NCBI GenBank assembly: GCA_030765235.1
Contig: JAVCCW010000028.1
Coordinates: 24,744 to 88,743 of the forward strand
DNA length: 64,000 bases
Reading direction: 5' to 3'
DNA from: Candidatus Gorgyraea atricola
GTDB lineage: Bacteria > Omnitrophota > Gorgyraeia > Gorgyraeales > Gorgyraeaceae
Under the pieces are notes generated by a model. The model did not search any database. It saw only the letters and a program-made list of their open reading frames with translations, and was not told the DNA's origin. The number at the start of each line of letters is the position of its first letter. Position 1 is the stretch's first letter. Both the position numbers and the translations under genes were made by a program. Of the stretch, positions 1,931 to 62,631 are shown one piece after another.

Positions 1931-2959
1931 ATGAAAATTCTAGTATTAAATAGCGGAAGTTCATCCATAAAATATAAGCTCTTTGACATATCAAAGAATA
2001 AAGAAACGCTTTTAGATAAAGGCATGGCGGAGAGAGTTTCTGATCATAAGGAGGCGTTGAGTTTAATATTGAAAAAAATAGATTCAAAGATAGAGGCCTG
2101 TGGTCACAGGGTCGTGCATGGCGGGGATAGATTTAAAACAGCAGCACTGATCGATGAAACTGTAATGGAGACAATAGAACATTTTAGTGAATTAGCACCT
2201 CTTCATAATCCGCCAGCGCTTCTGACAATAAATGAGTCAAAGAAACTTCTTCCGGATGTGCCGCACGTAGCAGTGTTTGATACAGCCTTTTTTCAGACAA
2301 TGCCGGAATGCGCGTATCTATATGCTATACCGTATGCGCTTTACGAGAAACACAAGATCCGAAAATATGGTTTTCATGGCACATCTCATAAGTATGTAGC
2401 AGGTCAGGCCGCGAGGATCTTGAAAAAGTCCATTGATAAGCTAAAGATCATCACCTGTCATCTGGGGAATGGATGCAGTATAGCTGCTGTTAAAAGCGGC
2501 AAGGCCATTGATACAAGTATGGGATTTACGCCTTTGGAAGGCCTTATCATGGGGACGCGCTCAGGAGATATTGATCCGACAATAGTTTCTTATATTATGA
2601 AGAAACAGGGCGTGGATATTGATAGGGCGATTGAGATTTTGAACAAGGAGAGCGGGCTTTTAGGTATCTCGGGTATAAGCAATGACATGCGCGAGATAGT
2701 AAGAAAAAAAGACGATAAGAGGTCAGCCCTTGCGCTAAAGATGTTTGCGTACAGGATTAAAAAATACATCGGCGCTTATATAGCTTCAATGGGTGGAGTG
2801 GATGCAGTGGTCTTTACAGGTGGTATTGGCGAGAATCACCCAAACCTGGTGAAAGAAATATGCAAAGACGTTGTATCGCCAAAGGTCAGGATATTATCGA
2901 TTCCAACAGATGAGGAATTGATGATCGCGAGAGATACGTATGAAAATATATGTAGATAA
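1931..2959 (+). CDS. ackA: acetate kinase family (acetate/propionate kinase)
   Basis: MKILVLNSGSSSIKYKLFD N-terminus, RKYGFHGTSHKYV, VFTGGIGEN and PTDEELMIARD motifs. 342 aa is about 50 aa shorter than typical AckA. Confidence 0.75.
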   Translation: MKILVLNSGSSSIKYKLFDISKNKETLLDKGMAERVSDHKEALSLILKKIDSKIEACGHRVVHGGDRFKTAALIDETVMETIEHFSELAPLHNPPALLTINESKKLLPDVPHVAVFDTAFFQTMPECAYLYAIPYALYEKHKIRKYGFHGTSHKYVAGQAARILKKSIDKLKIITCHLGNGCSIAAVKSGKAIDTSMGFTPLEGLIMGTRSGDIDPTIVSYIMKKQGVDIDRAIEILNKESGLLGISGISNDMREIVRKKDDKRSALALKMFAYRIKKYIGAYIASMGGVDAVVFTGGIGENHPNLVKEICKDVVSPKVRILSIPTDEELMIARDTYENICR

Positions 2960-3410
2960 GATATTGCCAGAGGGATTAGATCTTGCAGAGAAAATAGACC
3001 CGGGTAAGATCTCGTCGGATCTGGCAAAGCAGGGCACGGCTTTTTTTGATTCAATAGATGTGAAGGCAAGGGTCACAAAGGCAGGGATGGAGGTCTTTGT
3101 CGATATTTCCCTGGAATCACCTGTTGAATATACGTGCAGTCGCTGTCTTGCTAAGATCAAGGATACTTTTAAGAAAAGTTTTAACACCAATTATGAAGTC
3201 CATCCAGGAGATATTCTGGAGATAGATGACGACATAAGACAGGAAATAATGCTGGATAGTCCGATAAAGATCGTTTGCAAACCTGATTGTAAAGGGCTAT
3301 GCCCGAATTGCGGTCAGAATTTCAATGTAGATGAATGTGAGTGCAAAACAGAAAACAGAAAACAGAAGACAGAAGACGGAAGACAGAAAAATCTGTTATC
3401 TGACCTCTGA
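2940..3410 (+). CDS. yceD: YceD/DUF177 family protein (large-subunit rRNA maturation factor)
   Basis: C-terminal Cys cluster CKPDCKGLCPNCGQNFNVDECEC. Lies immediately upstream of rpmF-plsX, as in most bacteria. The 3' end carries a 6x ACAGAAR heptamer repeat. Confidence 0.75.
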   Translation: MKIYVDKILPEGLDLAEKIDPGKISSDLAKQGTAFFDSIDVKARVTKAGMEVFVDISLESPVEYTCSRCLAKIKDTFKKSFNTNYEVHPGDILEIDDDIRQEIMLDSPIKIVCKPDCKGLCPNCGQNFNVDECECKTENRKQKTEDGRQKNLLSDL

Positions 3411-3427
3411 CTTCTGTCATCTGAACG
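3346..3427 (+). repeat. tandem heptamer (ACAGAAR) x6 followed by its inverted complement (tctgtt...tctgtcatctg) at the yceD 3' end and stop
   Basis: acagaaaacagaaaacagaagacagaagacggaagacagaaa, then atctgttatctgacctctgacttctgtcatctg. Read directly from the sequence. Confidence 0.7.
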
Positions 3428-3448
3428 ATTATACAAGGAGGTTGAGAA

Positions 3449-3649
3449 ATGGCTTTACCAAAACGAAGACATTCGAGTTCAAGGCAGGGTAAGCGCAGAG
3501 GCGCGCAGAAGATCCATGTGCCGAGCGTATCAGTATGTCCGGATTGCAAGGCGCCAAAGTTATCACACAGGGTATGTCCTGCCTGTGGCTTTTACAAAGG
3601 CAGACAAGTCGTGCAGATAAAGAAGAAAGAGAAAGAAGAGAAGAAGTAG
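3449..3649 (+). CDS. rpmF: 50S ribosomal protein L32
   Basis: MALPKRRHSSSRQGKRRG...CPDCKAPKLSHRVCPACGFYKGRQV is a zinc-ribbon L32. The Lys/Glu-rich tail is encoded by a purine repeat. Confidence 0.9.
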   Translation: MALPKRRHSSSRQGKRRGAQKIHVPSVSVCPDCKAPKLSHRVCPACGFYKGRQVVQIKKKEKEEKK

Positions 3650-3654
3650 TAGTG

Positions 3655-3765
3655 AGGGACAAGGGACATGGGACCCCATACGAGAATCAAAGATTTCGTA
3701 CGGGGCAGGCAAGAGACAAGGGGGTTTAGATACTCCTTGTCCCTTGTTGCTTGTCACTTGTCCCC
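3655..3765. repeat. palindromic mini-repeat, intergenic copy (GGGACAA heptamers + core hairpin + inverted CCTTGTC arm)
   Basis: gggacaagggacatgggaccccatacgagaatcaaagatttcgtacggggcaggcaagagacaaggg...ccttgtcccttgttgcttgtcacttgtcccc. The core ccccatacga...tcgtacgggg is an inverted repeat. Near-identical cores occur at 6091-6157 and 30067-30138. Confidence 0.8.
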
Positions 3766-3782
3766 AAAGATGAGGTTTTGTC

Positions 3783-4769
3783 ATGATAAAGATAGCTTTA
3801 GACGCAATGGGATCGGATAATGCGCCGGGTGTGGATATTGAGGGTGCTGTGCTGGCGGCCCGTGAATATGACCACCAGATAATCCTGGTGGGTCAAAAAG
3901 ACCTCATTGAAAAGGAACTTGAAAATCACGGATCTATTCCAAAAAATATCTCCATAGAGCATGCCCCAGAGGTCATAGGCATGCACGAGCAGCCCGTTCT
4001 TAGCGTCAGAAGAAAAAAACATTCCTCTATTGTGACCCTGGCGAATCTTGCAAAAGAAAAAAAGGTAGACGCTATTGTCAGCGCGGGCAATACAGGCGCA
4101 ATGGTGTGCGCTGCCACGCTTAAATGCAGGCTTCTTCCTGGAATAGAAAGGGCAGGCATAGGTATTGTCATGCCTACCTTAAGAGATACGGCCTTGATGA
4201 TAGATGTAGGAGCTAATATAGGCGCTAAGCCCAAGCATCTCCTGCAGTATGCGATAATGGGAAGCGCCTATTCAGAATGTATATTAAATAAAAAATCCCC
4301 AAAGGTAGGGCTTCTGAATATCGGAGAGGAAGAATCAAAAGGCACGGGTTTTTTGAAAGAGGCATATGGACTTTTAGAGCTCTCGGGCCTGAATTTTATA
4401 GGCAATATCGAGGGCAGGGATCTTTTTATGGGAGATTGCGATGTTATCGTGTGCGATGGCCTGGTCGGGAATGTGGCGCTCAAGGTTTCAGAGAGCACTG
4501 CGCACGCCCTTACAGAGATGCTTAAGCAATACCTGAACAGCAGTTTTATTACAAGGCTTTCTGCTGTACTGGGCAGAAGCGCCTTTCGTTTATATAAGAA
4601 AAAGATGGATTCTGCCGAGTATGGCGGCGCGCCGCTTTTGGGTATAAATGGGATCTCTATAATATGCCATGGTTCTTCGAGCGCCAAGGCGATCAAGAAC
4701 GCTATTCGGGTAGCAGGCGAAGAATTCAATAAGAATGTAAATCAACATATAGTTGAGAAGATTTCATAG
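3783..4769 (+). CDS. plsX: phosphate acyltransferase PlsX
   Basis: 328 aa. MIKIALDAMGSDNAP N-terminus. Sits in the canonical rpmF-plsX-fabH position. Confidence 0.85.
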   Translation: MIKIALDAMGSDNAPGVDIEGAVLAAREYDHQIILVGQKDLIEKELENHGSIPKNISIEHAPEVIGMHEQPVLSVRRKKHSSIVTLANLAKEKKVDAIVSAGNTGAMVCAATLKCRLLPGIERAGIGIVMPTLRDTALMIDVGANIGAKPKHLLQYAIMGSAYSECILNKKSPKVGLLNIGEEESKGTGFLKEAYGLLELSGLNFIGNIEGRDLFMGDCDVIVCDGLVGNVALKVSESTAHALTEMLKQYLNSSFITRLSAVLGRSAFRLYKKKMDSAEYGGAPLLGINGISIICHGSSSAKAIKNAIRVAGEEFNKNVNQHIVEKIS

Positions 4770-4781
4770 AGAGGAGATGCG

Positions 4782-5759
4782 ATGCAGGAAGCTGGGATAT
4801 TAGGGTTAGGCTGTTATCTACCTCCAAAGAAATTAACGAACAGTGATATCGAAAAAATGGTAGATACAACGAATGAGTGGATAATTACTCGAACAGGCAT
4901 TAAAGAAAGAAGGATCGCGCCTAAAGAAGTTGCTGCGAGTGATCTTGGCGTCGAGGCGTCCAAGGCTGCTATTGAAAATGCCGGATTAAAACCAGAGGAT
5001 ATTGATTTAATTATTACAGCTACAATAACCCCTGACATGGCATTTCCTGCTACGGCGTGCATTATACAGGATAAGATCGGCGCAAAAAATGCTGCTGCAT
5101 TTGACATAAACGCTGCATGTACTGGTTTTGTTTATGGTATAGTCCTGGCCAAACAGTTTATTAATACAGGTACATATAATAATGTTTTAGTAGTGGGTAC
5201 AGAAAAGCTGACGAGCATTGTTGACTGGACAGATAGATCGACCTGTGTATTATTTGGAGATGGCGCAGGCGCGTGTGTAGTGGGAAAGAGTAAAGAAAAG
5301 AGGATAGTTTCTAGCTTCCTGGGCGCAGACGGCTCAGGCGGTCATCTTTTAAGTATGCCTGCGGGCGGCTCAAGATTACCTGCTACAGAGGATACAGTTA
5401 AAAATAAGCTGCATTTTCTTAAGATGGAAGGAAATGAGGTATTCAAGATCGCAGTCAGGATAATGGTGCAGGCTGCTGACAAGGCGATCAAGAAAGTAGG
5501 ACTTAAGCCCAGTGATATAAATCTAGTTATCCCTCATCAGGCAAATATCAGGATACTTATGGCAGTTGCAAAGAGATTGGGCCTGCCTGAAGAAAAGATT
5601 TTTTTGAATATAGAGAAATACGGAAATATGTCAGCAGCCTCTACAGCAGTTGCGCTGGCAGAAGCAGGCCAGCAGGGTAAGTTAAAGAAGGGCGATAATG
5701 TGGTGCTGGTTGCGTTTGGCGGAGGACTTACTTACGGAGCAGCTGTTATAAAATGGTAA
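4782..5759 (+). CDS. fabH: 3-oxoacyl-ACP synthase III
   Basis: 325 aa. LGLGCYLPPKKLTNSDIEKMVDTTNEWIITRTGIKERR, AACTGF active-site Cys region, and a C-terminal GGGLTYGAA. Confidence 0.9.
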   Translation: MQEAGILGLGCYLPPKKLTNSDIEKMVDTTNEWIITRTGIKERRIAPKEVAASDLGVEASKAAIENAGLKPEDIDLIITATITPDMAFPATACIIQDKIGAKNAAAFDINAACTGFVYGIVLAKQFINTGTYNNVLVVGTEKLTSIVDWTDRSTCVLFGDGAGACVVGKSKEKRIVSSFLGADGSGGHLLSMPAGGSRLPATEDTVKNKLHFLKMEGNEVFKIAVRIMVQAADKAIKKVGLKPSDINLVIPHQANIRILMAVAKRLGLPEEKIFLNIEKYGNMSAASTAVALAEAGQQGKLKKGDNVVLVAFGGGLTYGAAVIKW

Positions 5760-5760
5760 T

Positions 5761-5848
5761 AAATCGCGGAACCAGCGCAGAAGCTAAAGTAGACAAATCT
5801 GTCAGTGACTGATTTGTCTACTTTAGACGCGGAACTTACGCAGAAGCG
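5761..5848. repeat. intergenic element with aatcgcggaac terminus: 16-bp perfect stem-loop flanked by about 22-nt direct repeats
   Basis: atcgcggaaccagcgcagaagc | ctaaagtagacaaatc-tgtcagtgactg-gatttgtctactttag | acgcggaacttacgcagaagcg. The left terminus is shared with the elements at 21103 and 62511. Confidence 0.7.
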
Positions 5849-5854
5849 AAAAAT

Positions 5855-6826
5855 ATGAAAAATGTAAGTTATATTTTTCCAGGGCAGAGCGCGCAGCATG
5901 TTGGCATGGGCAAGGATCTGTATGAAAATTGCCCTGAGGCAAAAGACGCGTTTGATGAGGCAGAAAAGATTTTACCAGAGGCAGGCATTAAGAAACTCTG
6001 CTTTGAGGGACCTCTTGAAGAACTAACTCAGACAGCGAATAGTCAGGTGTGTATTCTTGTGGCTAGTGTGGCGGCGTTGAAGGCATTAGTGACAAGTGAC
6101 AAGGGACCCCATACGAAAATCGGAGATTTCGTACGGGGCAGGCAAGGGACAAGGGTTGTTGCTTGCGCAGGGCTTAGTTTGGGAGAACTCACGTCGCTTG
6201 TGGCTGCAGGAAGTATTGAATTTGCTGATGCTGTGCGCCTCGTTAGACGGCGTGGCGAATTAATGGAAGAGTCGTCCAGGAAGAATCCAGGCAGCATGGC
6301 CTCTATAATCGGCCTGGCGCTCGAGGATCTAAAAAAAGTTTGTGCTGAGACAGGCGCTGAGATAGCAAATCTAAATTGCCCTGGCCAGATAGTCATATCC
6401 GGGAGAAAAGAATCTGTTGAAAAGGCAATGCCCCTTGCGTTAGAAAAAGGCGCTAAAAAGGCAATAGCCTTAAAAGTGAGCGGAGGATTTCATTCTTCTT
6501 TAATGAAGGAGGCAGCAGATCTTTTTAAAATAGAACTGGACAAGGTAAAATTTTCAGCGCCTCAGATAGGTGTTGTCAGTAATGTAACCGCGGATTATGA
6601 AAAAACGCCTGACGAGATCAAAGATAATCTCGTTAAACAGCTATTTAGTCCAGTGCGCTGGGAAGAATCTATAAAGAGAATTGCCTCCTCAGATGGGGGC
6701 GTTGATATATTTTTTGAAATCGGCCCAGGGAAAGTGCTAAAAGGATTATTGCGTAGAATAGATGGTAATCTAAAGGTCCATAACATAGAAAAAGTACAAG
6801 ATATAGAAAATATAAAAAAGATGTAG
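5855..6826 (+). CDS. fabD: malonyl-CoA:ACP transacylase (carries an in-frame repeat insertion at 6091-6157)
   Basis: 323 aa. FPGQSAQHVGMG and the nucleophile elbow AGLSLGELTSL. The ORF is uninterrupted through the repeat. Confidence 0.85.
   Translation: MKNVSYIFPGQSAQHVGMGKDLYENCPEAKDAFDEAEKILPEAGIKKLCFEGPLEELTQTANSQVCILVASVAALKALVTSDKGPHTKIGDFVRGRQGTRVVACAGLSLGELTSLVAAGSIEFADAVRLVRRRGELMEESSRKNPGSMASIIGLALEDLKKVCAETGAEIANLNCPGQIVISGRKESVEKAMPLALEKGAKKAIALKVSGGFHSSLMKEAADLFKIELDKVKFSAPQIGVVSNVTADYEKTPDEIKDNLVKQLFSPVRWEESIKRIASSDGGVDIFFEIGPGKVLKGLLRRIDGNLKVHNIEKVQDIENIKKM
6091..6157. repeat. palindromic mini-repeat copy inside the fabD coding sequence, in-frame
   Basis: gacaagtgacaagggaccccatacgaaaatcggagatttcgtacggggcaggcaagggacaaggg, translated SDKGPHTKIGDFVRGRQGTR within FabD. 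Confidence 0.8.
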
Positions 6827-6945
6827 GGGTGAGGATGAGTTGTGGGTCGAGTTGTGAGTTGTGAGGGTGAGTTTAAAAACCCACAACCCACCCACACAAC
6901 CCGACACACAACTCATAACACACCCCCATAACTCACAACAAGAGT
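6827..6945. repeat. about 115-nt imperfect palindrome (GT-rich arm / AC-rich arm) between fabD and fabF
   Basis: gagttgtgggtcgagttgtgagttgtgagggtgagttt aaaa acccacaacccacccacacaacccgacacacaactc. Confidence 0.6.
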
Positions 6946-6952
6946 CATTATC

Positions 6953-8191
6953 ATGAAACGTCGCGTAGTAATAACAGGTCTGGGCGTAATAGCGCCGAAT
7001 GGCGTGGGTAAGCGGGCGTACTGGGATGCCTTGAAGCAGGGGCGTTCTGGCATTCGCCGAATTACGCGTTTTGACCCGAGCCCTTTTCCCACACAGTTTG
7101 CTGGTGAGGCGGATTTTGACCCTGCCAAATTTATTTCCTTTAAACAGCTAAAGCGAATGGACAGGACTTCGCATCTTGCGGTTTCAGCAGCAAAGATGGC
7201 AGTAGAAGATGCAGGCCTTAATATTAAAGACGAAGATCCTGAGCGCATAGGTGTTGTCGTAGGCACTGCAATGGCTGGCCATGGCAGGATACTTGAACAG
7301 CATGATGTATTTATAAAAAAAGGGCCGATGAAAATAGATACATTTACTGCGATAGCGTCTTTTCCAGATGCGCCGTCGAGTCAGATTTCCATAGAGCTTG
7401 GCATTAATGGCCCGAGCTTTTCTATTGCCACTGCATGTTCTTCTGCCTCAGATGCGATCGGCTATGCCTTTAATGCGATCAGAAACAAAGATCTTGATAT
7501 AGTCATTATGGGAGGTGCTGATACTCCTATATTTCCACCTATACTTGGCGCATTTTGTGTCTTAAGGGCATTGTCAAAGAGAAACGATGCGCCTGAGAGG
7601 GCCTCAAGGCCGTTTGATAAGGAAAGGGATGGTTTTGTGCTTGGCGAAGGCGCAGGGATTTTAATACTGGAAGACCTGGAACATGCCTTAAAGCGCAATG
7701 CCCATGTCTATGGCGAGATCTCAGGTTTTGGCATGACATGCGATGCCTATCATATGACAAAACCAGAGCCTTCGGGAACTCAAGCAATAAGGGCATTGAA
7801 GCAGGCATTGCAGGACGCAAAGGTGAAACCAGCCGAGATACAATATATCAATGCGCACGGCACATCAACTCTACTGAATGACAAAAACGAAACGTTTATC
7901 ATAAAAGAGGTTTTTGGAAAATACGCGACTAAGCTTCCAATAAGTTCAATAAAATCCATGATAGGACATTTAATAGGCGCTGCTGGCAGCGTGGAATTAA
8001 TAGGCGCCTTGATGGCCATTGAAGAAGGTGTCATTCCGCCTACGATAAACTATGAAGCGCCTGATCCGGAATGTGATCTTGATTTTGTACCTAATAAGGC
8101 AAGAGAGGCAAAGGTAGACGTGCTCTTAAAGAATTCGTTTGGATTCGGAGGCAAAAACTCAGCGCTTGTGGTTAAGAGTTTTAAAGGATAA
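6953..8191 (+). CDS. fabF: 3-oxoacyl-ACP synthase II (KAS II family), copy 1
   Basis: 412 aa. MKRRVVITGLGVIAP, the ATACSS active-site Cys, and HxxH...GHLxGAAG C-terminal motifs. Confidence 0.85.
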   Translation: MKRRVVITGLGVIAPNGVGKRAYWDALKQGRSGIRRITRFDPSPFPTQFAGEADFDPAKFISFKQLKRMDRTSHLAVSAAKMAVEDAGLNIKDEDPERIGVVVGTAMAGHGRILEQHDVFIKKGPMKIDTFTAIASFPDAPSSQISIELGINGPSFSIATACSSASDAIGYAFNAIRNKDLDIVIMGGADTPIFPPILGAFCVLRALSKRNDAPERASRPFDKERDGFVLGEGAGILILEDLEHALKRNAHVYGEISGFGMTCDAYHMTKPEPSGTQAIRALKQALQDAKVKPAEIQYINAHGTSTLLNDKNETFIIKEVFGKYATKLPISSIKSMIGHLIGAAGSVELIGALMAIEEGVIPPTINYEAPDPECDLDFVPNKAREAKVDVLLKNSFGFGGKNSALVVKSFKG

Positions 8192-8206
8192 CGAAGCTTT
8201 TCTGTA

Positions 8207-8246
8207 GGCCAGGTTTAAACCTGGCCTACAGAAAAGCGGAGTTATC
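8207..8246. repeat. 40-nt perfect palindrome cttttctgtaggccaggttt|aaacctggcctacagaaaag (core shared with 24753-24778)
   Basis: Perfect 20-bp arms centred on GTTTAAAC. Lies immediately after the fabF stop. A second copy of the 26-nt core occurs after gspM. Confidence 0.75.
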
Positions 8247-8267
8247 CAATGGATAACGGAGGATATT

Positions 8268-9274: not shown

Positions 9275-9300
9275 TATCTTTGCTTGGATCTGAGATGAAC

Positions 9301-9350
9301 GGGTTAGAAGAGTAAATCTGTATCTAATTCTCTTCTAACCCTTTACTTTT
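9301..9350 (+). terminator. rho-independent terminator after acpP
   Basis: gggttagaagag (12-bp perfect stem), a 17-nt loop, ctcttctaaccc, then a T-rich tttactttt. Confidence 0.6.
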
Positions 9351-9365
9351 AAGAGGATTTTAGAG

Positions 9366-10601
9366 ATGAAACGTAGAGTTGTCGTTACAGGATTAGGAAT
9401 AATCTCACCCGTAGGCAATAATAAGGAAGCATTCTGGACGTCTCTAGTGAATGGCAAGGGCGGTATTGGCCCGCTCACTTCCTATGATTGCAAGGATTAT
9501 ACTTCGCGTATAGCAGGTGAGGTCAAGAATTTCGTGCCAGCCCCATTTATCCCAAAGAAAGAATTGCGCCGCATGGAGAAGTTTGTCCAGTTTGCTGTAA
9601 CAGCAGCTAAAGAGGCGGTAGATGATTCAGGCCTTGATATACCAAATGAAGACCCGTTCAGAATAGGTGTTTTGGTGGGTTCAGGCATAGGCAGCTTAAG
9701 GATAATAGAGGAGCAGCATAAGGTGATTCTTGATAGGGGTCCTTCAAGAATAACTCCGTTTCTGATACCCATGCTTATTGTGAATATGGCGTCAGGCCAT
9801 ATATCAATAATGTTTAAGGTGAAGGGTCCGAACTCTTGCACAACGACTGCCTGCGCTGCAGGTACCCACGCGCTCGGCAGTGCATTTAAGATAATTCAGA
9901 GAGGCGATGCTGATGCGATGATCGCAGGCGGCACAGAGAGCTGTCTCACGGCTCTTGGCGTAGGAGGCTTTTGCGCATTAAAAGCGCTTTCCACTAGAAA
10001 CAATGAGCCAGAAAGGGCGAGCCGGCCTTTTGATAAAGAAAGAGACGGATTTGTAATAGCAGAAGGTTCTGGAATGGTTATCTTAGAAGAGTATGAGCAT
10101 GCAAAGAAAAGAAATGCCAAGATATACGCAGAGGTGATCGGTTTTGGAATGAGCGGAGACGGCTATCACATGACAGCGCCTGATCCTACAGCAGAGAGTC
10201 CAGCTGAATGTATGAGAAGCGCATTAAAGGATGCGGGGATAAAGCCAGAAGACGTCTCCTATATAAATGCGCATGGTACATCTACAAACCTCAATGATAA
10301 AGTAGAAACACTTGCTATAAAAAAGGTTTTTGGCGATTACGCGAAGAAAGTACCGATTTCCTCAACAAAATCCATGACAGGCCATCTACTAGGCGCGGCA
10401 GGGGGCGTTGAATTTATCGCATGCTGCCTTGCTATTAAAGATGGAATAATCCCACCCACCATTAACTACGAAAATCCAGACCCGGACTGCGACCTCGACT
10501 ATGTGCCAAACAAGGCGCGTAAGGCAAAGGTCGATATCTGCATATCCAATTCCCTAGGTTTCGGCGGTCATAACGCCACCATTTGCCTCAAAAAACTCTA
10601 A
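9366..10601 (+). CDS. fabF: 3-oxoacyl-ACP synthase II (KAS family), copy 2
   Basis: 411 aa. MKRRVVVTGLGIISP. A paralog of copy 1 over its full length, with the same active-site architecture. Confidence 0.85.
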   Translation: MKRRVVVTGLGIISPVGNNKEAFWTSLVNGKGGIGPLTSYDCKDYTSRIAGEVKNFVPAPFIPKKELRRMEKFVQFAVTAAKEAVDDSGLDIPNEDPFRIGVLVGSGIGSLRIIEEQHKVILDRGPSRITPFLIPMLIVNMASGHISIMFKVKGPNSCTTTACAAGTHALGSAFKIIQRGDADAMIAGGTESCLTALGVGGFCALKALSTRNNEPERASRPFDKERDGFVIAEGSGMVILEEYEHAKKRNAKIYAEVIGFGMSGDGYHMTAPDPTAESPAECMRSALKDAGIKPEDVSYINAHGTSTNLNDKVETLAIKKVFGDYAKKVPISSTKSMTGHLLGAAGGVEFIACCLAIKDGIIPPTINYENPDPDCDLDYVPNKARKAKVDICISNSLGFGGHNATICLKKL

Positions 10602-19916: not shown

Positions 19917-21101
19917 ATGCCTAAATTTATTTACAAAGCGAAAAAAGGGCCGAAAGAGATTATAGAGGGAAAGATCGAGGCTGAATCAGAGGCCCAGGCT
20001 GTAAAGCAGCTCATGCAGCAGGGCTATTATCCTATATGGGTTAAAGAGACCTCGACCTTAGCCTCACAAAAAAGAAGACCTGTAAAAACAAAGGACCTTG
20101 CGATTTTTACAAGGCAGCTCTCAGAGCTCTTGGATTCAGGCCTGGCCCTGTACGAGGCATTAAATATAATTGAAAATCAAATAGAGCTGCCGGGGTTAAA
20201 AGAGATCATAAGAGGTATTAGGGAAAAGGTAAGGGATGGCAATACCTTTTCTGAATCTTTGAAAGACTACCCAGGTGTTTTTTCAGAATTATATGTAAAT
20301 CTGGTTCGCTCAGGTGAGGCAGGGAGCATGCTTAGGGACGTGCTCAATAATATCGCGGATTTTCTGGAAAAAGAAGAGGATGTAAAGTCCAGGGTATTGG
20401 CTGCACTGGCATATCCAATGCTGATGCTGATCGTAGGTGCTGGTACAATATTTATTCTAACAGGATTTGTTATTCCAAAATTGGCCAATATGTTTATTGA
20501 GATGGGCGAGGTCTTACCTCTTCCCACAAGGATGCTTATTGGATTTAGTGATTTTATAAGGAGTTACTGGATATTATTAGCCATTTTTATAGGTGGCGCG
20601 ATATTTTTTGTTGCAAGGAGTAAATCCAAGGGGGCTATAGACAGGTTCAAATTAAAATTGCCTATTATTGGAGCGCTAGTAAGGGATAGTGAGCTTGCTA
20701 GATTCTCACGCACGCTTTCAATGCTTCTTAAAAATGGCGTGGCGATTCTTTCTGCATTAAAGATTACCTCTGATGTAATCGAAAATGAGGTTGTAAAAGC
20801 CGAGGCGCTTAGGATCTATAATGATGTTAGAGAAGGTTCATCGCTTGCAGCTGCGATAAAAAAGAATACCAGCTTTCCCCAGTTTATCGTAAATATGGCA
20901 ACGATAGGAGAAGAGGGTGGGATGCTGGATAAGACCTTACTTAAGGCTGCAAAGAGTTACGAGCTCGAGAGCGACAGAAAGATCAAGATACTCTCATCTC
21001 TTTTAGAGCCAGCTATAATATTGATCATGGGTGTGGTAGTAGGTTTTATCGTAATATCAATGCTTTTGCCAGTATTTCAGATATCGTTGACTGCACATTG
21101 A
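19917..21101 (+). CDS. gspF: type II secretion inner-membrane platform protein (GspF/PilC family)
   Basis: 394 aa. Duplicated T2SSF domains and three TM segments. The start codon abuts the gspE stop. Confidence 0.85.
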   Translation: MPKFIYKAKKGPKEIIEGKIEAESEAQAVKQLMQQGYYPIWVKETSTLASQKRRPVKTKDLAIFTRQLSELLDSGLALYEALNIIENQIELPGLKEIIRGIREKVRDGNTFSESLKDYPGVFSELYVNLVRSGEAGSMLRDVLNNIADFLEKEEDVKSRVLAALAYPMLMLIVGAGTIFILTGFVIPKLANMFIEMGEVLPLPTRMLIGFSDFIRSYWILLAIFIGGAIFFVARSKSKGAIDRFKLKLPIIGALVRDSELARFSRTLSMLLKNGVAILSALKITSDVIENEVVKAEALRIYNDVREGSSLAAAIKKNTSFPQFIVNMATIGEEGGMLDKTLLKAAKSYELESDRKIKILSSLLEPAIILIMGVVVGFIVISMLLPVFQISLTAH

Positions 21102-21102
21102 C

Positions 21103-21134
21103 AAATCGCGGAACTTCCGCGTAGTTCAGCGATT
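21103..21134. repeat. minimal copy of the aatcgcggaac...gttcagcgatt palindromic element, directly after the gspF stop
   Basis: aaatcgcggaacttccgcgtagttcagcgatt. The termini are shared with the element at 62511-62628, and the left terminus with 5761-5848. Confidence 0.65.
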
Positions 21135-21549: not shown

Positions 21550-21784
21550 AAAAGGGATTTTATTGCTGGAAGTATTAGTCAGCACTACGATTCTTTCAGT
21601 TTGTTTTATATTTATAATAAGTTCTTTTACGAGATCTATAAGGGCGATAGACCTCTCAGGGGATTATTTCAGGCTAGGCCTGGTTCTTGAGCAGGAATTA
21701 TACGAGGCCCTTGATTGCGAATTAAAACAAGGTCTTCCGGATTTTGACAAAATTTATGAAGAAAAAAGGGTTTACCCTGATTGA
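21524..21784 (+). CDS. minor pseudopilin (GspH/GspI-like)
   Basis: Start chosen at MILRTGKNKKG|ILLLEVLVSTTIL, a prepilin-like leader plus hydrophobic helix. Overlaps the gspG 3' end by 26 nt. The ORF track's upstream extension is rejected. Confidence 0.5.
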   Translation: MILRTGKNKKGILLLEVLVSTTILSVCFIFIISSFTRSIRAIDLSGDYFRLGLVLEQELYEALDCELKQGLPDFDKIYEEKRVYPD

Positions 21785-22325
21785 GCTTATAATTAGTGTA
21801 ACAATATTTAGCATAGTAATCGTTTCAGTTTATGGCGTGTTTTATATGGGTTTAAAGACATGGAGGCGCGCTCAAGGAGAAAAATCCCTGCAAGAGATAC
21901 GCATGGCATTTTTAAAGATGGAAAAGGAACTGAAAAATACATTCTTCTTTTCTGACACCAAATTTAAAGGCACGTCAAAAGACATGTCTTTTCCTTTAGT
22001 TGTCTCAGATAAAGTTTATACAATTACCTATAGCGTGAACGAAAATGAAGATAGCGGACTAAGTCAAATTCTGAGAACAAAAGACGAAGAAGAAAAAGAG
22101 ATATCGCCTCCAATGAAGTCTATTAAATTTCAATATGCTGCTATGGCCGAAGATATCGAATGGAAGGATAATTGGAATGAAGATGACCTTCCTTCTGGCA
22201 TAAGGATTTCTTTAGAGGATGAGGAGACTTGCCCCGTGCCTTTTGCAGATAGAGCAAAAAGCAAAAGGCATGGGGTTTACAGCAAGACCATTTTTCTTAA
22301 ACAGCCGGATTTTAAGATACAATGA
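21756..22325 (+). CDS. minor pseudopilin (GspJ-like)
   Basis: MKKKG|FTLIELIISVTIFSIVIVSVYGVF prepilin N-terminus. An in-frame TTG at 21744 is an alternative start. About 190 aa, consistent with GspJ. Confidence 0.55.
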   Translation: MKKKGFTLIELIISVTIFSIVIVSVYGVFYMGLKTWRRAQGEKSLQEIRMAFLKMEKELKNTFFFSDTKFKGTSKDMSFPLVVSDKVYTITYSVNENEDSGLSQILRTKDEEEKEISPPMKSIKFQYAAMAEDIEWKDNWNEDDLPSGIRISLEDEETCPVPFADRAKSKRHGVYSKTIFLKQPDFKIQ

Positions 22326-24722: not shown

Positions 24723-24778
24723 CTTTACACTTAACCAAGGCTTAAGTGTAAAGTAGGCCAGGTTTAAACCTGGCCTAC
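24722..24778. repeat. two adjacent perfect palindromes after gspM: actttacacttaa-ccaaggc-ttaagtgtaaagt and gtaggccaggtttaaacctggcctac
   Basis: The second is the 26-nt core of the 8207-8246 palindrome. Confidence 0.75.
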
Positions 24779-24798
24779 AGAGAAGTTAGGAGTTGACC

Positions 24799-29610: not shown

Positions 29611-30462
29611 ATGAATATTATCGTCTGCATAAAACAGGTCCCGGATACAACAGATATTAGAATAGATCCTGAGACGAATACGCTTATCAGGAGCGGAGTG
29701 GCAAGTATTATAAATCCATTCGATATGTACGCGATTGAAGAAGGGATCCGTCTTAAGGAGAAGTTTGGCGGTAAAGTCACGATTCTGACAATGGGACCGC
29801 CGCAGGCAGAAGATGCGTTGCGCGAGGCGATCTCGCTTGGCGCAGATGAGGCGATCCTTGTTTCAGATCGCGCATTTGCGGGGAGCGACACTTGGGCAAC
29901 GAGTTACACCCTATCAAAGGCGATCCATAAGATAGGCGACTGCGATCTTATAATCTGCGGAAAGCAGGCAATCGACGGTGATACTGCTCAGGTCGGGCCT
30001 GGCATTTCAGCGCACCTCGATATACCACAGGTCGCGTATGTTAAAAAGATAGAAGAGGTAAATTTAGGGACAAGGGACCCCATACGAGAATCAAAGATTT
30101 CGTACGGGGCAGGCAAGGGACAAGGGACAAGTAGTGGCTATATGCGTACCGAGAGGATGACAGAGGAAGGCTATGAGATCATTGAATCGCCTCTGCCGTG
30201 CCTGATTACTGTTGTAAAAGAGATAAATGAGCCAAGGCTCCCTTCTTTAAAGGGGAAGATGAAGGCCAAAAAGATTGAAATAAAAAAGTGGGGCGCAAAA
30301 GATCTCGATGTGGATCCTGATCTGATCGGACTCAATGGCTCACCAACAAAGGTGGTAAGGATATTCACGCCGCCCCCCAGAGAAAAAGGTCAGATGCTAG
30401 AAGGAGACGCAAAAGAGGTAAGCGAGAAATTAGTCGAGTTGTTAAAGAAGGATATTTTATAA
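29611..30462 (+). CDS. etfB: electron transfer flavoprotein beta subunit (carries an in-frame repeat insertion at 30067-30138)
   Basis: 283 aa. MNIIVCIKQVPDT, and AILVSDRAFAGSDTWATSYTLSKAI. The ORF is uninterrupted through the repeat. Confidence 0.85.
   Translation: MNIIVCIKQVPDTTDIRIDPETNTLIRSGVASIINPFDMYAIEEGIRLKEKFGGKVTILTMGPPQAEDALREAISLGADEAILVSDRAFAGSDTWATSYTLSKAIHKIGDCDLIICGKQAIDGDTAQVGPGISAHLDIPQVAYVKKIEEVNLGTRDPIRESKISYGAGKGQGTSSGYMRTERMTEEGYEIIESPLPCLITVVKEINEPRLPSLKGKMKAKKIEIKKWGAKDLDVDPDLIGLNGSPTKVVRIFTPPPREKGQMLEGDAKEVSEKLVELLKKDIL
30067..30138. repeat. palindromic mini-repeat copy inside the etfB coding sequence, in-frame (different frame from the fabD copy)
   Basis: gggacaagggaccccatacgagaatcaaagatttcgtacggggcaggcaagggacaagggacaagtag, translated RDPIRESKISYGAGKGQGTSS. 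Confidence 0.8.
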
Positions 30463-31687: not shown

Positions 31688-31750
31688 AAAGTGTCAGGTG
31701 TCAAGTGTCAGGGGCGTTCCTTGACACTTGACACTTTGAACCTGACACCA
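31688..31750. repeat. imperfect palindrome built from GTGTCAR units in the smc 5' leader
   Basis: aaagtgtcaggtgtcaagtgtcagg ggcgttcc ttgacacttgacactttgaacctgacac. Confidence 0.6.
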
Positions 31751-31774
31751 GCAAAGGAATATAAGGAAGCAAGT

Positions 31775-34700: not shown

Positions 34701-35356
34701 AGGTCGAGGAAAAGCGTGAAAAGCTGGATTCTATGGGCACAGTGAATCTGGTGGCCATCGAAGAACACACAGAACTCCAGGATAGATTCGCGTTTTTAAC
34801 ACACCAGCGGGATGATTTACTAAAGGCAAAGGACACGCTCTTAAAGGCCATAGCCAAGATAAACAAGATCACAAAAGAGCTTTTTATGGAGACATTTAAG
34901 AGTATACAGGTCGAGTTCAGGAATTTCTTTAAGATGCTGTTCGGCGGCGGCGACGGCGAGCTGATACTTCTGGATGAAAATAATGTGCTTGAGTCTGGCA
35001 TCGAGATAGTGGCAAGACCTCCAGGAAAAAGGCTTCAGAATGTGTCGCTGCTTTCAGGGGGAGAAAAGGCCCTCACCGCGATCTCACTCATCTTTGCCAT
35101 ATTCAAGGTAAAGCCCAGCCCGTTCTGCGTGCTGGATGAGATAGACGCGCCCCTTGACGAGTCAAACGTTGACAGGTTTTCAAGAAGCCTTGATATGTTT
35201 ACAAACACCTCACAGTTCATCGTAATAACCCACAACAAAAAGACCATTGATAAGGCCGACGTGATGTATGGCATCACCATGCAGCAGTCAGGCGTCTCTA
35301 AAGTTGTCTCAGTGAAATTTTCTGACTCTAGGAAACAAGAGGCAGCGACTAAATAA
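31775..35356 (+). CDS. smc: chromosome partition protein SMC
   Basis: Start chosen at MYFKRLELFGFKSFAERTKLDF with Walker A GPNGCGKSN. Long coiled coils, a hinge, and a C-terminal LSGGEKALTAISLIFAIF...VLDEIDAPLD ABC signature and D-loop. The ORF track's upstream extension covers the palindrome. Confidence 0.85.
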   Translation: MYFKRLELFGFKSFAERTKLDFEPGITAIVGPNGCGKSNIADSIKWVLGEQSAKMLRGGKMEDVIFNGTDGREPVNYAEVSLTLSNQDRILPIEYDEVTVARRLYRSGESEYLINKTTVRLKDVSELFMGTGIGTSAYSLIEQGKIDQVLSSRPEDRREVFEEASGITKYKSKRKEAMRRLDGTEQNLVRINDIIIEVKRQINSIERQARKAERYKERYEELKALELKLTRIELELLNQKIKESSTNLEGLKTRESELNSGLQKMIGELSELNTQRSEIESKRMDFKSTIIETDSEVSKSKDKLSMNRERIEELKKRRIDLESEIEKSADSIKSQRKEVEGLREKVSTLQTEDMERSSALSVKEKRLDETSKTISENETTISTSKANLIDLASKESKLRNQSAKISTTLASDDARLKRLTVEKDTILEEKNSLDVKLSDVLKEVEQVETEVLSLKDEKESVSQKVSALTSRIESLTSQSTQIHQTLATNKSRFDVLNEAKAKYEGFSSGVKAIMGKGVFKKKPIEGVQDALANLFSVNKGYEIAIESALGENLESILVDDLESAEKAIEFLKENSLGKALFAHPDSFRAMQSETSLSDSRILGRAIDFARINNKCRNILEYLLKDTFIVKDLKDAASILKENPDLKESTFVTLLGEKIGRGFVSGGDIRDAGLTLINREENIKELFEIIAASEARFKIIEEEKLTGEQEKEELEKRSEVVTSSLNEKEIMLANARTRRSNIEENMKGVADEISLVSLEVDEVTSEAERLKEEELSVVKALKQSENDTHLNQERIKRSEILISDYAKEKEQLIIEVAEQRTELGSLESKKEGLSNTLNLLDSSLKDVENSRQARKAEIEDSIKKVKELSDGLMTLEKNIESLSEKSGEKGVELEGVESVYSAVMQKIKEQEVIFKQSEKEINSLRSNVHEIDLKRAETNYGLENLTQRIKDVYKLDLNEVEIVENWQDIERDALRSEVEEKREKLDSMGTVNLVAIEEHTELQDRFAFLTHQRDDLLKAKDTLLKAIAKINKITKELFMETFKSIQVEFRNFFKMLFGGGDGELILLDENNVLESGIEIVARPPGKRLQNVSLLSGGEKALTAISLIFAIFKVKPSPFCVLDEIDAPLDESNVDRFSRSLDMFTNTSQFIVITHNKKTIDKADVMYGITMQQSGVSKVVSVKFSDSRKQEAATK

Positions 35357-35530
35357 TAAATCCCAAATCCAAATACTACCAAATCCCAAATAAATCCAAT
35401 CCTTTGACTACGCTCAGGATTGGCCCTGAGCAAAGTCGAAGGGCCAAAATCCCAAATCCAAAACCATGTTTGGGATTTGGAAATTGGGATTTATTTGGTA
35501 GTATTGGTATTTATTGGGATTTGGGATTTT
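35357..35530. repeat. about 170-nt composite palindrome of AAATCCCAAATCC units between the convergent smc and GGDEF genes (probable bidirectional terminator)
   Basis: aaatcccaaatccaaatactaccaaatcccaaataaatcc ... ggatttatttggtagtattggtatttattgggatttgggattt, with internal hairpins ggccctgagcaaagtcgaagggcc and ccaaatccaaaaccatgtttgggatttgg. Confidence 0.65.
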
Positions 35531-39447: not shown

Positions 39448-40193
39448 TGAAAAATCGCTTATCAGTAATATTGCCCACTTACAATGAGGCAGAAAACATA
39501 AAACCCCTGATAGATGCCATAAGAGATGCGCTGGAAGAGGTTTATGAGGTAATAGTCGTTGATGATAATTCTCCTGATGGTACGAGTGAAATCGTTGAGA
39601 AGATGATCAGGGGAGGGGGATACCAGTTTTTAAAATTAGAGAAGAGGACTAGCGACAGGGGTTTGACTAAGAGTATAGCCAGAGGCATAGAACTTGCCAC
39701 AGGTGATGTGGTAGGCTGGATGGACTGCGATTTTTCAATGCCCCCGAAATACCTGCCAGTACTTTTGTCACTTATTAATGCGGATTACGATATTGCAGTA
39801 GGTTCTCGCTTTCTTCTGGGCGGCAGATGGAAGGGAGAAAAGAAAAATCCGGAAGATACTTTTCTTGGAGTCATATTGAGCCGCATTATGAATTTATTTA
39901 TACAGGTCTGTCTTGATCATAGATTCAGGGATTATACCAGCGGTTTTGTCGTGGCGCGCAGAGAAATTTTTGAAAAGATCGAGCTGAGGGGGGACTACGG
40001 TGAGTATTTTATAGATTTTATCTATCGTGCCCTGAAGTCAAATTATCATGTGGTCGAGGTCCCGTATGTATGGCGCCCCAGAAAAGCAGGTTGCTCTAAA
40101 ACAGGGATCAATCTAGCTGATTATTGCAGGCGCGGCTGGAAATATATTATTACTACGTTGAGGTTGCTGTTCTCATGCCGAAAGTCTTATTAA
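39447..40193 (+). CDS. GT2 polyprenol-phosphate sugar transferase (DPM1/ArnC-like)
   Basis: 248 aa. LSVILPTYNEAENI...VIVVDDNSPDGT and a DxD-type WMDCD. Confidence 0.75.
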   Translation: MKNRLSVILPTYNEAENIKPLIDAIRDALEEVYEVIVVDDNSPDGTSEIVEKMIRGGGYQFLKLEKRTSDRGLTKSIARGIELATGDVVGWMDCDFSMPPKYLPVLLSLINADYDIAVGSRFLLGGRWKGEKKNPEDTFLGVILSRIMNLFIQVCLDHRFRDYTSGFVVARREIFEKIELRGDYGEYFIDFIYRALKSNYHVVEVPYVWRPRKAGCSKTGINLADYCRRGWKYIITTLRLLFSCRKSY

Positions 40194-41645: not shown

Positions 41646-42725
41646 ATGACAAAAAGGATACTGATAATAAATCCATTCGGAATAGGGGATGTTTTGTTTT
41701 CAACCCCTTTGATCGCTACTATTAAAGAAAAATACTCTGGGTGCTATATAGGGTATATATGTAATATAAGGACAGAGGAGATACTGGCTGCAAATCCCGG
41801 GATAGACGAAGTTTTTATATTTGAGAGAGATGAATATAGAGAGCTCTGGAAGAAGTCAAAACTGGAATGTCTTAAGAAGCTTTGCGATTTCTGGAAAGAG
41901 ATAAAAAAAAGAAGATTCGATCTATTGTTTGACCTTTCCCTGGGCAGGGAATATGCGTTTTTATGCTGGTTGATAGGCATAAGAGAGCGCAGGGGTTTTA
42001 ATTATAAAGGCCGCGGGAGATTTTTGACGCATAAGATTCAGTTTGATGGGTTTAGTGGCAGGCCTGTCGCGGAATATTACTTGGATGCTATTAGGGACAA
42101 GGGACAAGGGACAAGGGACAAGGGGTTGATTTTAGCAACAACAGATAAGGATAAAGAATATATTGATGCCTTTTTGAAAAAGGCAGGGATTAAAGAACAG
42201 GATACGCTGGTCGGCATTGCGCCTGGAGGAGGCGCTTCTTATGGCAAAGAAAAATCCCATTACAAAAGATGGGGCTGTGAGAAGTTTGCTGTGCTTGCTG
42301 ACAGGATAGCATCGTGCGGGGCTAAGCCTATCTTACTGGGAGGACCTAAAGAAAAAGACTTGATCAGGGATGTTAAACTAAAAATGCAAGGCAAGCCCCT
42401 CATGGGGCCAGACGCAAAAATAAGAGAGATGGCTTGTTTGATCAAAAGATGTAACGTACTTGTGTGTAACGACGGGGGACTCTTACATATAGCCGTGAGT
42501 CAGGATACGCCTACAGTTTCCATTTTCGGACCCACTGATGAAAAGGTCTATGGCCCGTATCCGGCATCTAAAAAACATATTGTTGTAACAAACAATGCGG
42601 ATTGCAGGCCTTGCTACAGGCGTTTCAGGCTGCCAGAATGTACTGACAGGAAGTGCATGGAAGACCTTTCTGTAGACTCTGTTTTTAACGCGCTTTCAAA
42701 ATTTATCCAAGAGGTAGGGACATGA
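41646..42725 (+). CDS. GT9-family glycosyltransferase (LPS heptosyltransferase-like); contains GGGACAA x4 repeat
   Basis: 359 aa. [24 protein letters not shown]-terminus, and LGGPKEKDL...[16 protein letters not shown]-terminal GT-B motifs. Confidence 0.75.
42094..42125 (+). repeat. tandem heptanucleotide GGGACAA x4 (+GGGG) inside the GT9 ORF
   Basis: gggacaagggacaagggacaagggacaagggg, translated [11 protein letters not shown]. The same heptamer flanks the palindromic mini-repeats. Confidence 0.8.
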
Positions 42726-58523: not shown

Positions 58524-58526
58524 TAA

Positions 58527-58656
58527 CACGGAGGTTGCGGAATGTTACGGAATGTTAGAGAAGGTTACGGAAGGTTACAAGAGGCGATGGATTTCAGCGC
58601 TTTTAGTGTAACATTCCGCAACCTTCCGAAACATTCCGCAACCTTATGTAACATCC
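58527..58656. repeat. about 130-nt imperfect palindrome built from GGTTGCGGAATGTT/ACGGAA units between the epimerase and gmhB
   Basis: ggaggttgcggaatgttacggaatgttagagaaggttacggaaggttaca ... tgtaacattccgcaaccttccgaaacattccgcaaccttatgtaacat. Confidence 0.6.
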
Positions 58657-58672
58657 AAGGATATTCCATATC

Positions 58673-62497: not shown

Positions 62498-62510
62498 TAC
62501 ATATGTGGAT

Positions 62511-62628: not shown

Positions 62629-62631
62629 TAT

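Follow-up and report, generated by a model that had tools for sequence, protein, structure and literature searches.

Nested palindromic repeats in the rpmF–plsX spacer of Candidatus Gorgyraea atricola as probable miniature mobile DNA

The spacer between rpmF and plsX in Candidatus Gorgyraea atricola (Omnitrophota) holds a long hairpin built mostly of GGGACAA-type heptamers, and the question is what kind of DNA it represents: one transposable element, a regulatory signal, or something else. We analysed a 64 kb stretch of DNA of this organism (the window; copy counts refer to it unless stated otherwise), whose EtfB and GT9 glycosyltransferase proteins match, with 100% identity, NCBI records that bear the name Candidatus Gorgyraea atricola. 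In our estimate the spacer feature is probably made of two nested non-autonomous pieces of mobile (selfish) DNA, an outer palindrome of about 82 nucleotides (nt) and a 36-nt hairpin, and is neither a single element nor a dedicated regulatory signal. Directly observed are the anatomy, the identity of the copies, the exact filled and empty sites, the tolerance of in-frame copies, and homologous palindromes at non-orthologous loci.

The plsX loci of 80 genomes were used for comparison, and etfB loci were gathered via protein homologues; the fetched loci are labelled with L-numbers. The closest genome, CAZWYD01 (loci L045 and L125–L127), is called the sister here; it showed about 90–91% DNA identity to the window, and its PlsX (L045) is 98% identical to that of the window. 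Three contigs (L134, L135 and L136; ENA ERZ27315536) come from a second assembly of the organism, fragmented to pieces of 1.5–2 kb.

All parts of the spacer element are described on the plus strand. It follows rpmF (ribosomal protein L32; open reading frame (ORF) 3449–3649, stop codon TAG at 3647–3649), which is conserved in all relatives. The left copy of a TGAGG direct repeat (3653–3657) gives its last two Gs to the first heptamer; sister locus L045 has the single ATGTGAGGTATTGTCATG. The outer part of the left arm (3656–3674; GGGACAA GGGACAT GGGAC) contains 2.7 heptamer units, is recognised with period 7 by Tandem Repeats Finder (TRF), and pairs with 3750–3765. At GGGAC^AA it is interrupted by a nested 36-nt hairpin, CCCATACGAGAATCAAAGATTTCGTACGGGGCAGGC (3675–3710; a boundary ambiguity of 1 nt makes 3674–3709 equally possible), in which the 32-nt core hairpin CCCCATACGAGAATCAAAGATTTCGTACGGGG (3674–3705) is followed by CAGGC. 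The inner part of the left arm (3711–3724) consists of AA, which completes the third unit, GAGACAA and GGGGG, and pairs with 3735–3748. Behind the apical loop TTTAGATACT of the heptamer palindrome (3725–3734, as placed by the folds) comes the right arm CCTTGTCCCTTGTTGCTTGTCACTTGTCCCC (3735–3765; CC TTGTCCC TTGTTGC TTGTCAC TTGTCCC C), again of period 7 by TRF and paired in the fold. It is an imperfect inverted complement of the left arm in four units, with GGGACAA on the minus strand at 3737 and 3758. AAAGA and then the right copy of TGAGG (3771–3775) follow; this copy contains the ribosome-binding site GAGG (3772–3775) of plsX (ORF 3783–4769).

The RNA fold of 3645–3785 reached −55.3 kcal/mol, compared with −39.0 ± 3.8 for 200 shuffled sequences (z = −4.32; 0 of 200 as good), and this agrees with the first-pass annotation, which had described a long hairpin here with GGGACAA on the left and its complement on the right. 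In the predicted fold the heptamer arms form a long stem, and the core, a CCCC...GGGG hairpin, branches off its side. After removal of the 36-nt core in silico, the spacer element folded as a single clean hairpin of −46 kcal/mol. Four plus four heptamer units then pair (3656–3724 without the core, with 3735–3765), which is the inverted-repeat layout of a miniature inverted-repeat transposable element (MITE), the arms of the outer palindrome being only about 80% complementary. GGGACAA itself occurs 20 times in the window against 6.0 ± 2.6 expected.

The core was found three times in the window, at 3674, 6107 and 30078 (0, 3 and 0 mismatches, with 0 copies expected by chance); over the 32 nt of the hairpin two copies are identical, and the remaining one has 3 differences. 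All three lie on the plus strand, at GGGAC^AA and in the same heptamer phase. One stands in frame in fabD (5855–6826), where VTSDKGPHTKIGDFVRGRQGTR (6089–6155) reads GTGACAA GTGACAA GGGAC, core (6108–6143), AA GGGACAA GGG. Another is in frame in etfB (29611–30462), where GTRDPIRESKISYGAGKGQGT (30067–30130) reads GGGACAA GGGAC, core (30079–30114), AA GGGACAA GGGACAA. Common to all copies are GGGAC before the core and AAG(G/A)GACAAGGG after it; the core has 12–20 nt of heptamer homology on both sides, and the left flanks of the three copies diverge beyond 5–12 nt.

Through comparison with the sister, we found the empty sites of both genic copies. The fabD site of the sister is GGGACAA GAGACAT GGGAC^AT GGGACAA GGG and its etfB site is TTA GGGACAA GGGAC^AC GGGACAA GGGACAA GT, each exactly 36 nt shorter than in the window; the filled sites are longer by exactly 36 nt without a duplicated flank. 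The core is a discrete 36-nt unit, separate from the heptamer arrays, because the sister has the fabD and etfB arrays without it and shorter by this length. In etfB the number of heptamer units is zero in the outgroup L131, one in L132 (TTAGGGACAAGT) and four in L125, while the window combines four units with the core; this series suggests in-situ expansion of the genic arrays.

Both host ORFs are intact. The core is translated in two different frames, as PHTKIGDFVRGR in fabD (context ..DKGPHTKIGDFVRGRQGTR..) and as PIRESKISYGAG in etfB, and all three forward frames are open in the core as well as in the heptamer. The extra segments of FabD and EtfB align to gaps when compared with the solved homologues 1mla (FabD) and 6fah_B (EtfB). 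In the AlphaFold2 model the EtfB insert is a coil with a predicted local distance difference test score (pLDDT) below 50, between strands 140–151 and 177–184. The model shows a loop location for the etfB insert, and that in fabD presumably occupies a loop as well. Genic copies would survive because the unit amounts to 12 codons (36 nt), can be read through in each of the three forward frames, and sits in a loop.

The core begins with CCCC(A/G)TAC and ends with GGGGCAGGC. Its folding energy is −14 kcal/mol on the plus strand and −17 kcal/mol on the minus strand, and the mismatch in the hairpin is A.C on the plus strand and G.T on the minus strand in the window, L012, L007 and L129. Such a strand asymmetry fits a hairpin that is required to fold as one particular DNA strand.

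Related cores were found in more distant DNA. In the distant Omnitrophota L128 and L129/L130 (EtfB 76% identical), a related core, CCCCGYACC..GGTACGGGGCAGGY, stands at the same EtfB loop; written as CCCCG(T/C)ACCACAAGGGTACGGGGCAGG(T/C), it has the foot and the GGGGCAGG tail of the window core with a shorter stem. A hairpin pattern scan of JGI metagenomes returned mostly chance palindromes and three related core variants; the pattern required both arms, and the basal pairing of these variants is not independent evidence. Metagenome contig L012 carries CCCCATACGAG..CTCGTACGGGGCAAGC (CCCCATACGAGCAAGCTCGTACGGGGCAAGC) between GATGGAC heptamers, within about 300 nt of 7-periodic DNA, and L006 and L007 carry two CCCCRTACGAAAGCNAAGCTTCGTACGGGGCAAG variants. 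The related cores of L128, L006 and L007 lack matching flanking arrays.

Searching about 1.2 Mb of fetched loci with BLAST and regular expressions, we found no core copies beyond those in L128/L129/L130, L012, L006 and L007/L042/L044. The exact core 20-mer had no match in 185,579 species-representative genomes, which points to an expansion that is recent and lineage-specific. A peptide query with all five open frames retrieved only a spurious ORF over the same rpmF–plsX spacer, and the viral contigs contained no core. Seven of the viral contigs from IMG/VR (L137–L143) have runs of at least four GGGACAA, the longest of which, about 14 units, opens L137.

The outer element is the palindrome of about 82 nt with four GGGACAA-type heptamers per arm. 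The rpmF–plsX spacer of the sister is only TAAATGTGAGGTATTGTCATG; that of the window is longer by 118 nt, with TGAGG on either side. Two copies of TGAGG around the insertion and one in the sister suggest a short target duplication for the outer palindrome, as a single case to which a deletion, considered below, would give the same picture. The outer palindrome has no other full copy within the window; its inverted right arm occurs only at the spacer copy and not at the fabD or etfB copies. A homologous palindrome was found in L049 (PlsX 80% identical), at 1100–1185 in the recG–rsmD spacer, with 74–80% identity to the core-less window element. It reads GGACAAG AGACAAG CGACAAG AGACAGG, loop, CTTGTTG TTTGTTG CCTGCTG CTTGTTAC. 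This GRGACAA-type palindrome has the same 4+4 layout and shares variant units with the window, namely GAGACA(A/G) as the fourth left unit and TTGTTGC in the right arm; both of its arms are present and the core is not. The outer palindrome may be classed as a dispersed MITE-like element; its inverted arms were found, and the other MITE features are only suggestive.

Two simpler origins of the heptamers were considered. The arrays could have been 7-bp target duplications left by repeated insertion and excision of the core, and this was ruled out, since filled and empty sites differ by 36 nt and not by 43 (two loci). Purely in-situ slippage as the source of the heptamer palindromes is weakened by the homologous palindromes at non-orthologous loci in other species.

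The spacer is not an isolated case. In the comparison of the window with the sister (about 23 kb aligned at ~90% identity), nearly all insertions or deletions of 30–150 nt were whole or partial palindromes. The ones confined to the window are 3648–3765, 5757–5855, 6107–6142, 6822–6962, 8186–8250, 21098–21134, 22228–22275, 24764–24797, 30078–30113 and 31725–31760, and three of palindrome type are present only in the sister. Tandem repeats in this clade most commonly have period 7; arrays of period 7, 14 or 21 number 15.7 per 100 kb here, compared with 5.6 in loci of other Omnitrophota and 4.5 in loci from outside the phylum.

Other hairpins of the window also have relatives at non-orthologous loci, with 70–97% identity. 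The palindrome at 6822–6950 (GAGTTGT arms) matches the etfA–smc spacer of L131 with 79–84% identity over about 120 nt. The ACAGAAR heptamer palindrome at 3345–3424 overlaps the 3' end of yceD and adds about 20 residues to YceD; at this place the sister has a different (TAAACNC) palindrome and L046 has none, and a relative of the window element stands in L049 at 9299–9409. The ACAGAAR array had been likened earlier to the GGGACAA arrays, and it does belong to the same class of elements, but to another family, which has a relative of its own in L049. Palindromes 58524–58672 and 62498–62631 correspond to L132 3168–3298 and 4693–4792 (the latter in reverse orientation), in non-orthologous spacers, and are built of 10–11-nt tandem units (ACGGAAGGTT; CGCAGAACTA-like). 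A GTAG-headed REP-like family, CTGTAGGCCAGGTTTAAACCTGGCCTACAG, is represented by GTAGGCCAGGTTTAAACCTGGCCTAC at window 8204 and 24753 (24753–24785), with a relative in L048 at 3204–3240.

The following course of events would fit. The outer palindrome of about 82 nt, one of a class of small palindromic insertions in the spacers of Gorgyraea-like Omnitrophota, would have been inserted just upstream of the plsX ribosome-binding site, the duplicated TGAGG marking the junctions. The 36-nt unit would then have been inserted at the fixed position GGGAC^AA, in one orientation and without target duplication, and would have entered the fabD and etfB arrays in the same way. An enzyme encoded elsewhere may have moved it in trans, in the form of a single-stranded DNA hairpin. 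Our best guess for this enzyme, a tentative one that we hold to be less probable than its opposite, is an HUH/Y1 activity (IS200/IS605- or RAYT-like) cutting 3' of a short motif, because the insertion lies 3' of a motif, without duplication and in a single orientation, and the unit is a hairpin with strand asymmetry.

Among known systems, the cyanobacterial small dispersed repeats (SDR4–6) and STRR heptamer repeats (Elhai et al. 2008, Genome Res 18:1484; Mazel et al. 1990) are the nearest analogue: tiny mobile hairpin modules at a precise site in iterated short sequence. SDRs are reportedly also associated with tandem heptamer repeats (Elhai et al. 2008). The insertion point of SDR5 lies exactly between nt 3 and nt 4 of HIP1 (PMC4390886). 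Here, in the same manner, all three cores are at GGGAC^AA and two exact empty sites exist, which makes a functional analogy only. The host is from Omnitrophota, there is no sequence similarity, the unit has 36 nt instead of the 21–27 nt of SDR, and the target is GGGAC^AA; moreover, unlike in the SDR case, the heptamers form dispersed palindromes, and copies stand in frame in essential genes. Intergenic tandem heptanucleotide arrays are described in Beggiatoaceae, cyanobacteria and Bacteroidetes; in many prokaryotes, heptamers outnumber every other long simple-sequence-repeat unit (PMC4679880).

REP sequences are imperfect palindromes of 20–40 nt that occur in many copies and are often paired into larger hairpins (PMC3116915; PMC3733652). 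Two REP superfamilies are defined by a GTAG or CGTC tetranucleotide head, and roles in mRNA stabilisation and transcription termination have been hypothesised (PMC3733652). The 32-nt core resembles REP/BIME/REPIN elements in size and palindromic form, with three copies in 64 kb at 0–3 mismatches, but neither of its strands has a GTAG or CGTC head, and two of its three copies are intragenic (fabD, etfB); the GTAGGCCAGGTTTAAACCTGGCCTAC palindrome fits the GTAG type better. Recognition of a single-strand hairpin, as by RAYT or Y1 HUH enzymes, would explain the exact boundaries of the core, the absence of duplication and the asymmetry. Members of the IS200/IS605 family and PATEs insert 3' of a fixed 4–5-nt motif without target duplication, on one strand and in a hairpin-dependent manner. 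The core shares with them the fixed motif, the gain of 36 nt without duplication (two loci), the one strand and the asymmetry; it differs in being one 32-nt hairpin with a 4–5-nt tail, whereas those elements have two different subterminal hairpins and at least 100 nt.

Rickettsia palindromic elements (RPEs) are selfish sequences in frame in unrelated housekeeping genes; they are translated, and the fold and function of the protein are predicted to tolerate them (PMC10969869). Like RPEs (Ogata et al. 2000), the core inserts in frame into unrelated ORFs at tolerated positions, but RPEs have about 100–150 bp and a family-conserved peptide, whereas the core has 36 nt, is read in two frames without giving a conserved peptide, and in every case stands inside a heptamer array. 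The outer palindrome is comparable to bacterial MITEs (Correia/NEMIS, ERIC, RUP, Nezha) in being small and non-coding, with inverted arms and a flanking direct repeat, at non-orthologous sites and with a presence that varies between close relatives. Unlike in MITEs, its arms are built of tandem 7-nt units and only imperfectly complementary. We know of no parent insertion sequence with ends matching it. The two main Omnitrophota genomics papers that were searched make no mention of heptamers, hairpins, palindromes or tandem repeats.

Several points weigh against two nested mobile pieces. The evidence comes from three copies of the core and, for the outer palindrome, one copy in another species. 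Had the sister lineage lost the 118 nt by a deletion between TGAGG repeats, the result would look identical to an insertion in the window, and the outgroup L046 has a different 7-periodic sequence in its rpmF–plsX spacer. The few within-species pairs (L125 vs L126/L127, L132 vs L133, L129 vs L130) showed zero hairpin differences. No transposase of any kind, Y1/HUH included, was seen in the window ORFs scanned (those outside about 48–63 kb) or in the loci of relatives, and no RAYT gene was present in the scanned ORFs of the 64-kb window. Further, copying driven by the heptamer homology around the core could mimic site-specific transposition, and AA follows the core in each of the three window copies where the empty arrays of the sister have AT or AC, as co-converted flanks would predict.

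The last two points belong to the main rival for the spread of the core, homology-driven copying, in which the core would spread without a transposase through array-to-array gene conversion or template switching, the copied unit being the core with its flanking heptamers. The immediate flanks are identical in all copies, the phase and orientation to the array are constant, and no transposase was found nearby, all as such copying would have it. However, the homology arms measure only about 12–20 nt while the loci are 2.4 to 24 kb apart, the related cores in L128, L006 and L007 occur without matching arrays, and the left flanks soon differ. An element-specific mechanism would account at least equally well for boundaries of exactly 36 nt at two loci and for a hairpin that is asymmetric between the strands. 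We regard this copying as unlikely, though with a real share of the probability.

The first-pass annotation had instead proposed one MITE-like repeat system, and on that basis the whole could be a single element with heptamer arrays as inverted repeats and the core at its centre, the spacer holding the full-length master and the genes truncated copies. In support, the core always lies within GGGACAA units, the spacer has inverted arms and TGAGG repeats, and the related cores in L012 and L129 also adjoin short tandem units. Yet the fabD and etfB arrays of the sister are coreless by exactly 36 nt, the L049 palindrome has both arms and no core, and the core sits asymmetrically in the left arm, not in the centre, its removal leaving a clean hairpin. 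The genic copies have no right arm. The TTGTTGCTTG tail that fabD was supposed to share with the spacer turned out to be native fabD codons (GTT GTT GCT TGC, the VVAC of VVACAGLSLGE), conserved in relatives without the element. What stands of the proposal is that three of three cores are in GGGACAA arrays and that the palindrome is dispersed; the core is nevertheless a separate 36-nt unit, and a master role of the spacer does not agree with the coreless arrays of the sister, the coreless palindrome of L049 and a right arm confined to the spacer. The single-element reading is largely refuted, and we give it a low probability.

Could the hairpin be a functional cis-acting RNA, such as a terminator or attenuator, an rpmF 3' stabiliser, an RNase III site, or a translational regulator of plsX? 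The structure is very stable, it lies between a ribosomal-protein gene and lipid-synthesis genes, immediately upstream of the plsX ribosome-binding site, several relatives (L046, L048, L071, L051 and L053) carry some hairpin here, and REP-like roles have been hypothesised (PMC3733652). But these hairpin sequences are unrelated between species, and the hairpin is absent in the closest relative and in L047, L049, L054 and L055, whose spacers have 10–25 nt. The stem is followed by CCCCAAAGAUGAGG and not by the U-tract that, with a GC-rich stem-loop, makes an intrinsic terminator, and no terminator-like site or promoter was predicted in 2900–4000. Rfam 15 gave no match at gathering score in the window, with only sub-threshold noise in an E-value scan of 3300–3850. 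The core also occurs in coding sequence in two frames. A terminator or riboswitch-like RNA was rejected on these grounds, and we hold a functional RNA to be improbable and regulation unlikely as the reason for the existence of the element. In the rpmF–plsX transcript the structure is probably a stable stem that is merely tolerated; at most, the roughly 28-bp stem after rpmF might act as a REP/BIME-like 3' stabiliser or RNase III site. No new regulatory mechanism for rpmF–plsX is revealed. A canonical intrinsic terminator does exist after acpP (window 9290–9345; GGGTTAGAAGAG..CTCTTCTAACCC and a T-run) and is conserved in L048, L050 and L052–L054, unlike the heptamer hairpins.

An artefact of assembly or binning, with a chimeric join or collapsed repeat in the metagenome-assembled genome (MAG), is very improbable: palindromes and repeats often disrupt short-read assembly, and ENA contigs L135 and L136 end in neighbouring hairpins, but contig L136 reproduces the whole spacer ungapped (window 3363–4961, 99.94% identity, 1 mismatch in 1599 nt), fabD and etfB stay in frame, and the NCBI protein records of this MAG carry the same inserts (P0001, P0121; 100% identity).

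Besides the elements above, further palindromes and inserts were observed. The 99-nt insertion at 5757–5855 splits fabH and fabD, which overlap (TGGTGA) in the sister, and provides a new stop for fabH and a new ATG for fabD. In it, direct repeats CGCGGAACNNNCGCAGAAGC (period ~11) enclose a perfect 41-nt hairpin, and its motif AATCGCGGAAC also occurs at window 21104 and 62512 and in spacers of L132 and L128. GAGTTGT of the fabD–fabF palindrome (6849–6873) is found as native codons AGA GTT GTA (RVV) in L045, L052 and L053. These codons stand at the start of the downstream ketoacyl-synthase gene (fabF; L045 ~4022–4028), where the window has CGC GTA GTA; this could be a coincidence or a trace of local seeding or templating.

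At 8186–8250, a 33-nt palindrome lies within a larger stem. The outer arms of this stem repeat, in inverted form, the host sequence GGATAACGGAG that flanks it, and this sequence recurs directly after the insert, as if the palindrome grew by copying its flank. The GTAG-headed family occurs in the sister as CGTAGGTCGGATTTAAATCCGACCTACG at another site (L125, in an insert after window-equivalent 22315). A 48-nt hairpin (22228–22275; CTTG CCCCGTGCCTTTTGC..GCAAAAGGCATGGGG) is in frame in a pilin-like gene (21744–22325, N_methyl motif) and missing in the sister; its foot CCCCGTGCC..GGCATGGGG resembles the foot of the 36-nt core. Between the convergent smc and GGDEF genes, an AAATCCC-type heptamer palindrome (35355–35529) has its own nested hairpin at 35400–35443 (CTCAGGATTGGCCCTGAG centre, once in the window), an architecture like that of the rpmF–plsX element.

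The etfA–smc spacer, where the window carries an AGTGTCA palindrome, holds in L129 (12179–12597, equal to L130 8448–8866) a gene for a PF05635 protein (23S rRNA intervening-sequence/bAvd-like four-helix protein) in the loop of a heptamer palindrome with CTNTAAG arms. In this one case it could be an ORF-bearing version of the hairpins. The smc gene of the sister (L125 12086–17164, after window-equivalent 31886) contains a 1689-nt intein with a LAGLIDADG homing-endonuclease domain just past Walker A; the window smc has no intein. Between the aminotransferase and radical-SAM genes, 676 nt (39448–40123) are free of any ORF of at least 80 aa and may be a decayed gene.

The bare GGGACAA array reported earlier inside the GT9 glycosyltransferase gene is real: four units plus GGG lie in frame on the plus strand at 42094–42124 (4.6 units over 42093–42124), without a core. 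Across Omnitrophota (homologues P0122–P0240), this GT9 loop is an insertion hot spot. P0122 has RDKGHETRDK, and in P0125 the heptamer-coded stretch contains an extra IPRLRSGQAG. Segments of the SLEQYSSSGVLSEAKDEVE type occur in P0192 and P0237, and SLEQYSSS is repeated at the C-terminus of P0237. The loops of FabD and EtfB, like that of GT9, have different heptamer-coded peptides by species.

Two ENA contig ends lie inside hairpin elements (L135 ends at window 1872 and L136 starts at window 3363), which suggests that palindromes break short-read assemblies.

The rpmF–plsX spacer probably presents nested miniature mobile DNA, of which we found no earlier description in the phylum. The case bears on how repeats of less than 40 nt (the size of REP and SDR) move and choose their targets. 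The value of this locus is that it offers three near-identical 36-nt copies, two exact empty sites, a fixed target and a host palindrome that is also known without the core; because the filled and empty sites are clean, mobility and the position of the cut become directly testable.

A bolder and rather unlikely extension is that Gorgyraea-like Omnitrophota have an undescribed two-tier system of miniature mobile DNA, with palindromes of 7-nt (sometimes 10–11-nt) units that are gained and lost at almost every gene boundary and a 36-nt hairpin homing to a single position of one type of heptamer, both perhaps driven by a non-classical (hairpin-templated or HUH-like single-strand) machinery. If this were true, the 36-nt hairpin would be among the smallest site-specific mobile units reported, homing even inside essential genes, and the PF05635 gene in the L129 heptamer-hairpin loop would be a further lead to the machinery. 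Independently of this extension, most length differences between sister genomes in this clade come from such elements, including extra loops in FabD, EtfB, the pilin-like protein and the GT9 glycosyltransferase. This has consequences for annotation, for MAG assembly, in which contigs break at hairpins, and for protein-family alignments of Omnitrophota.

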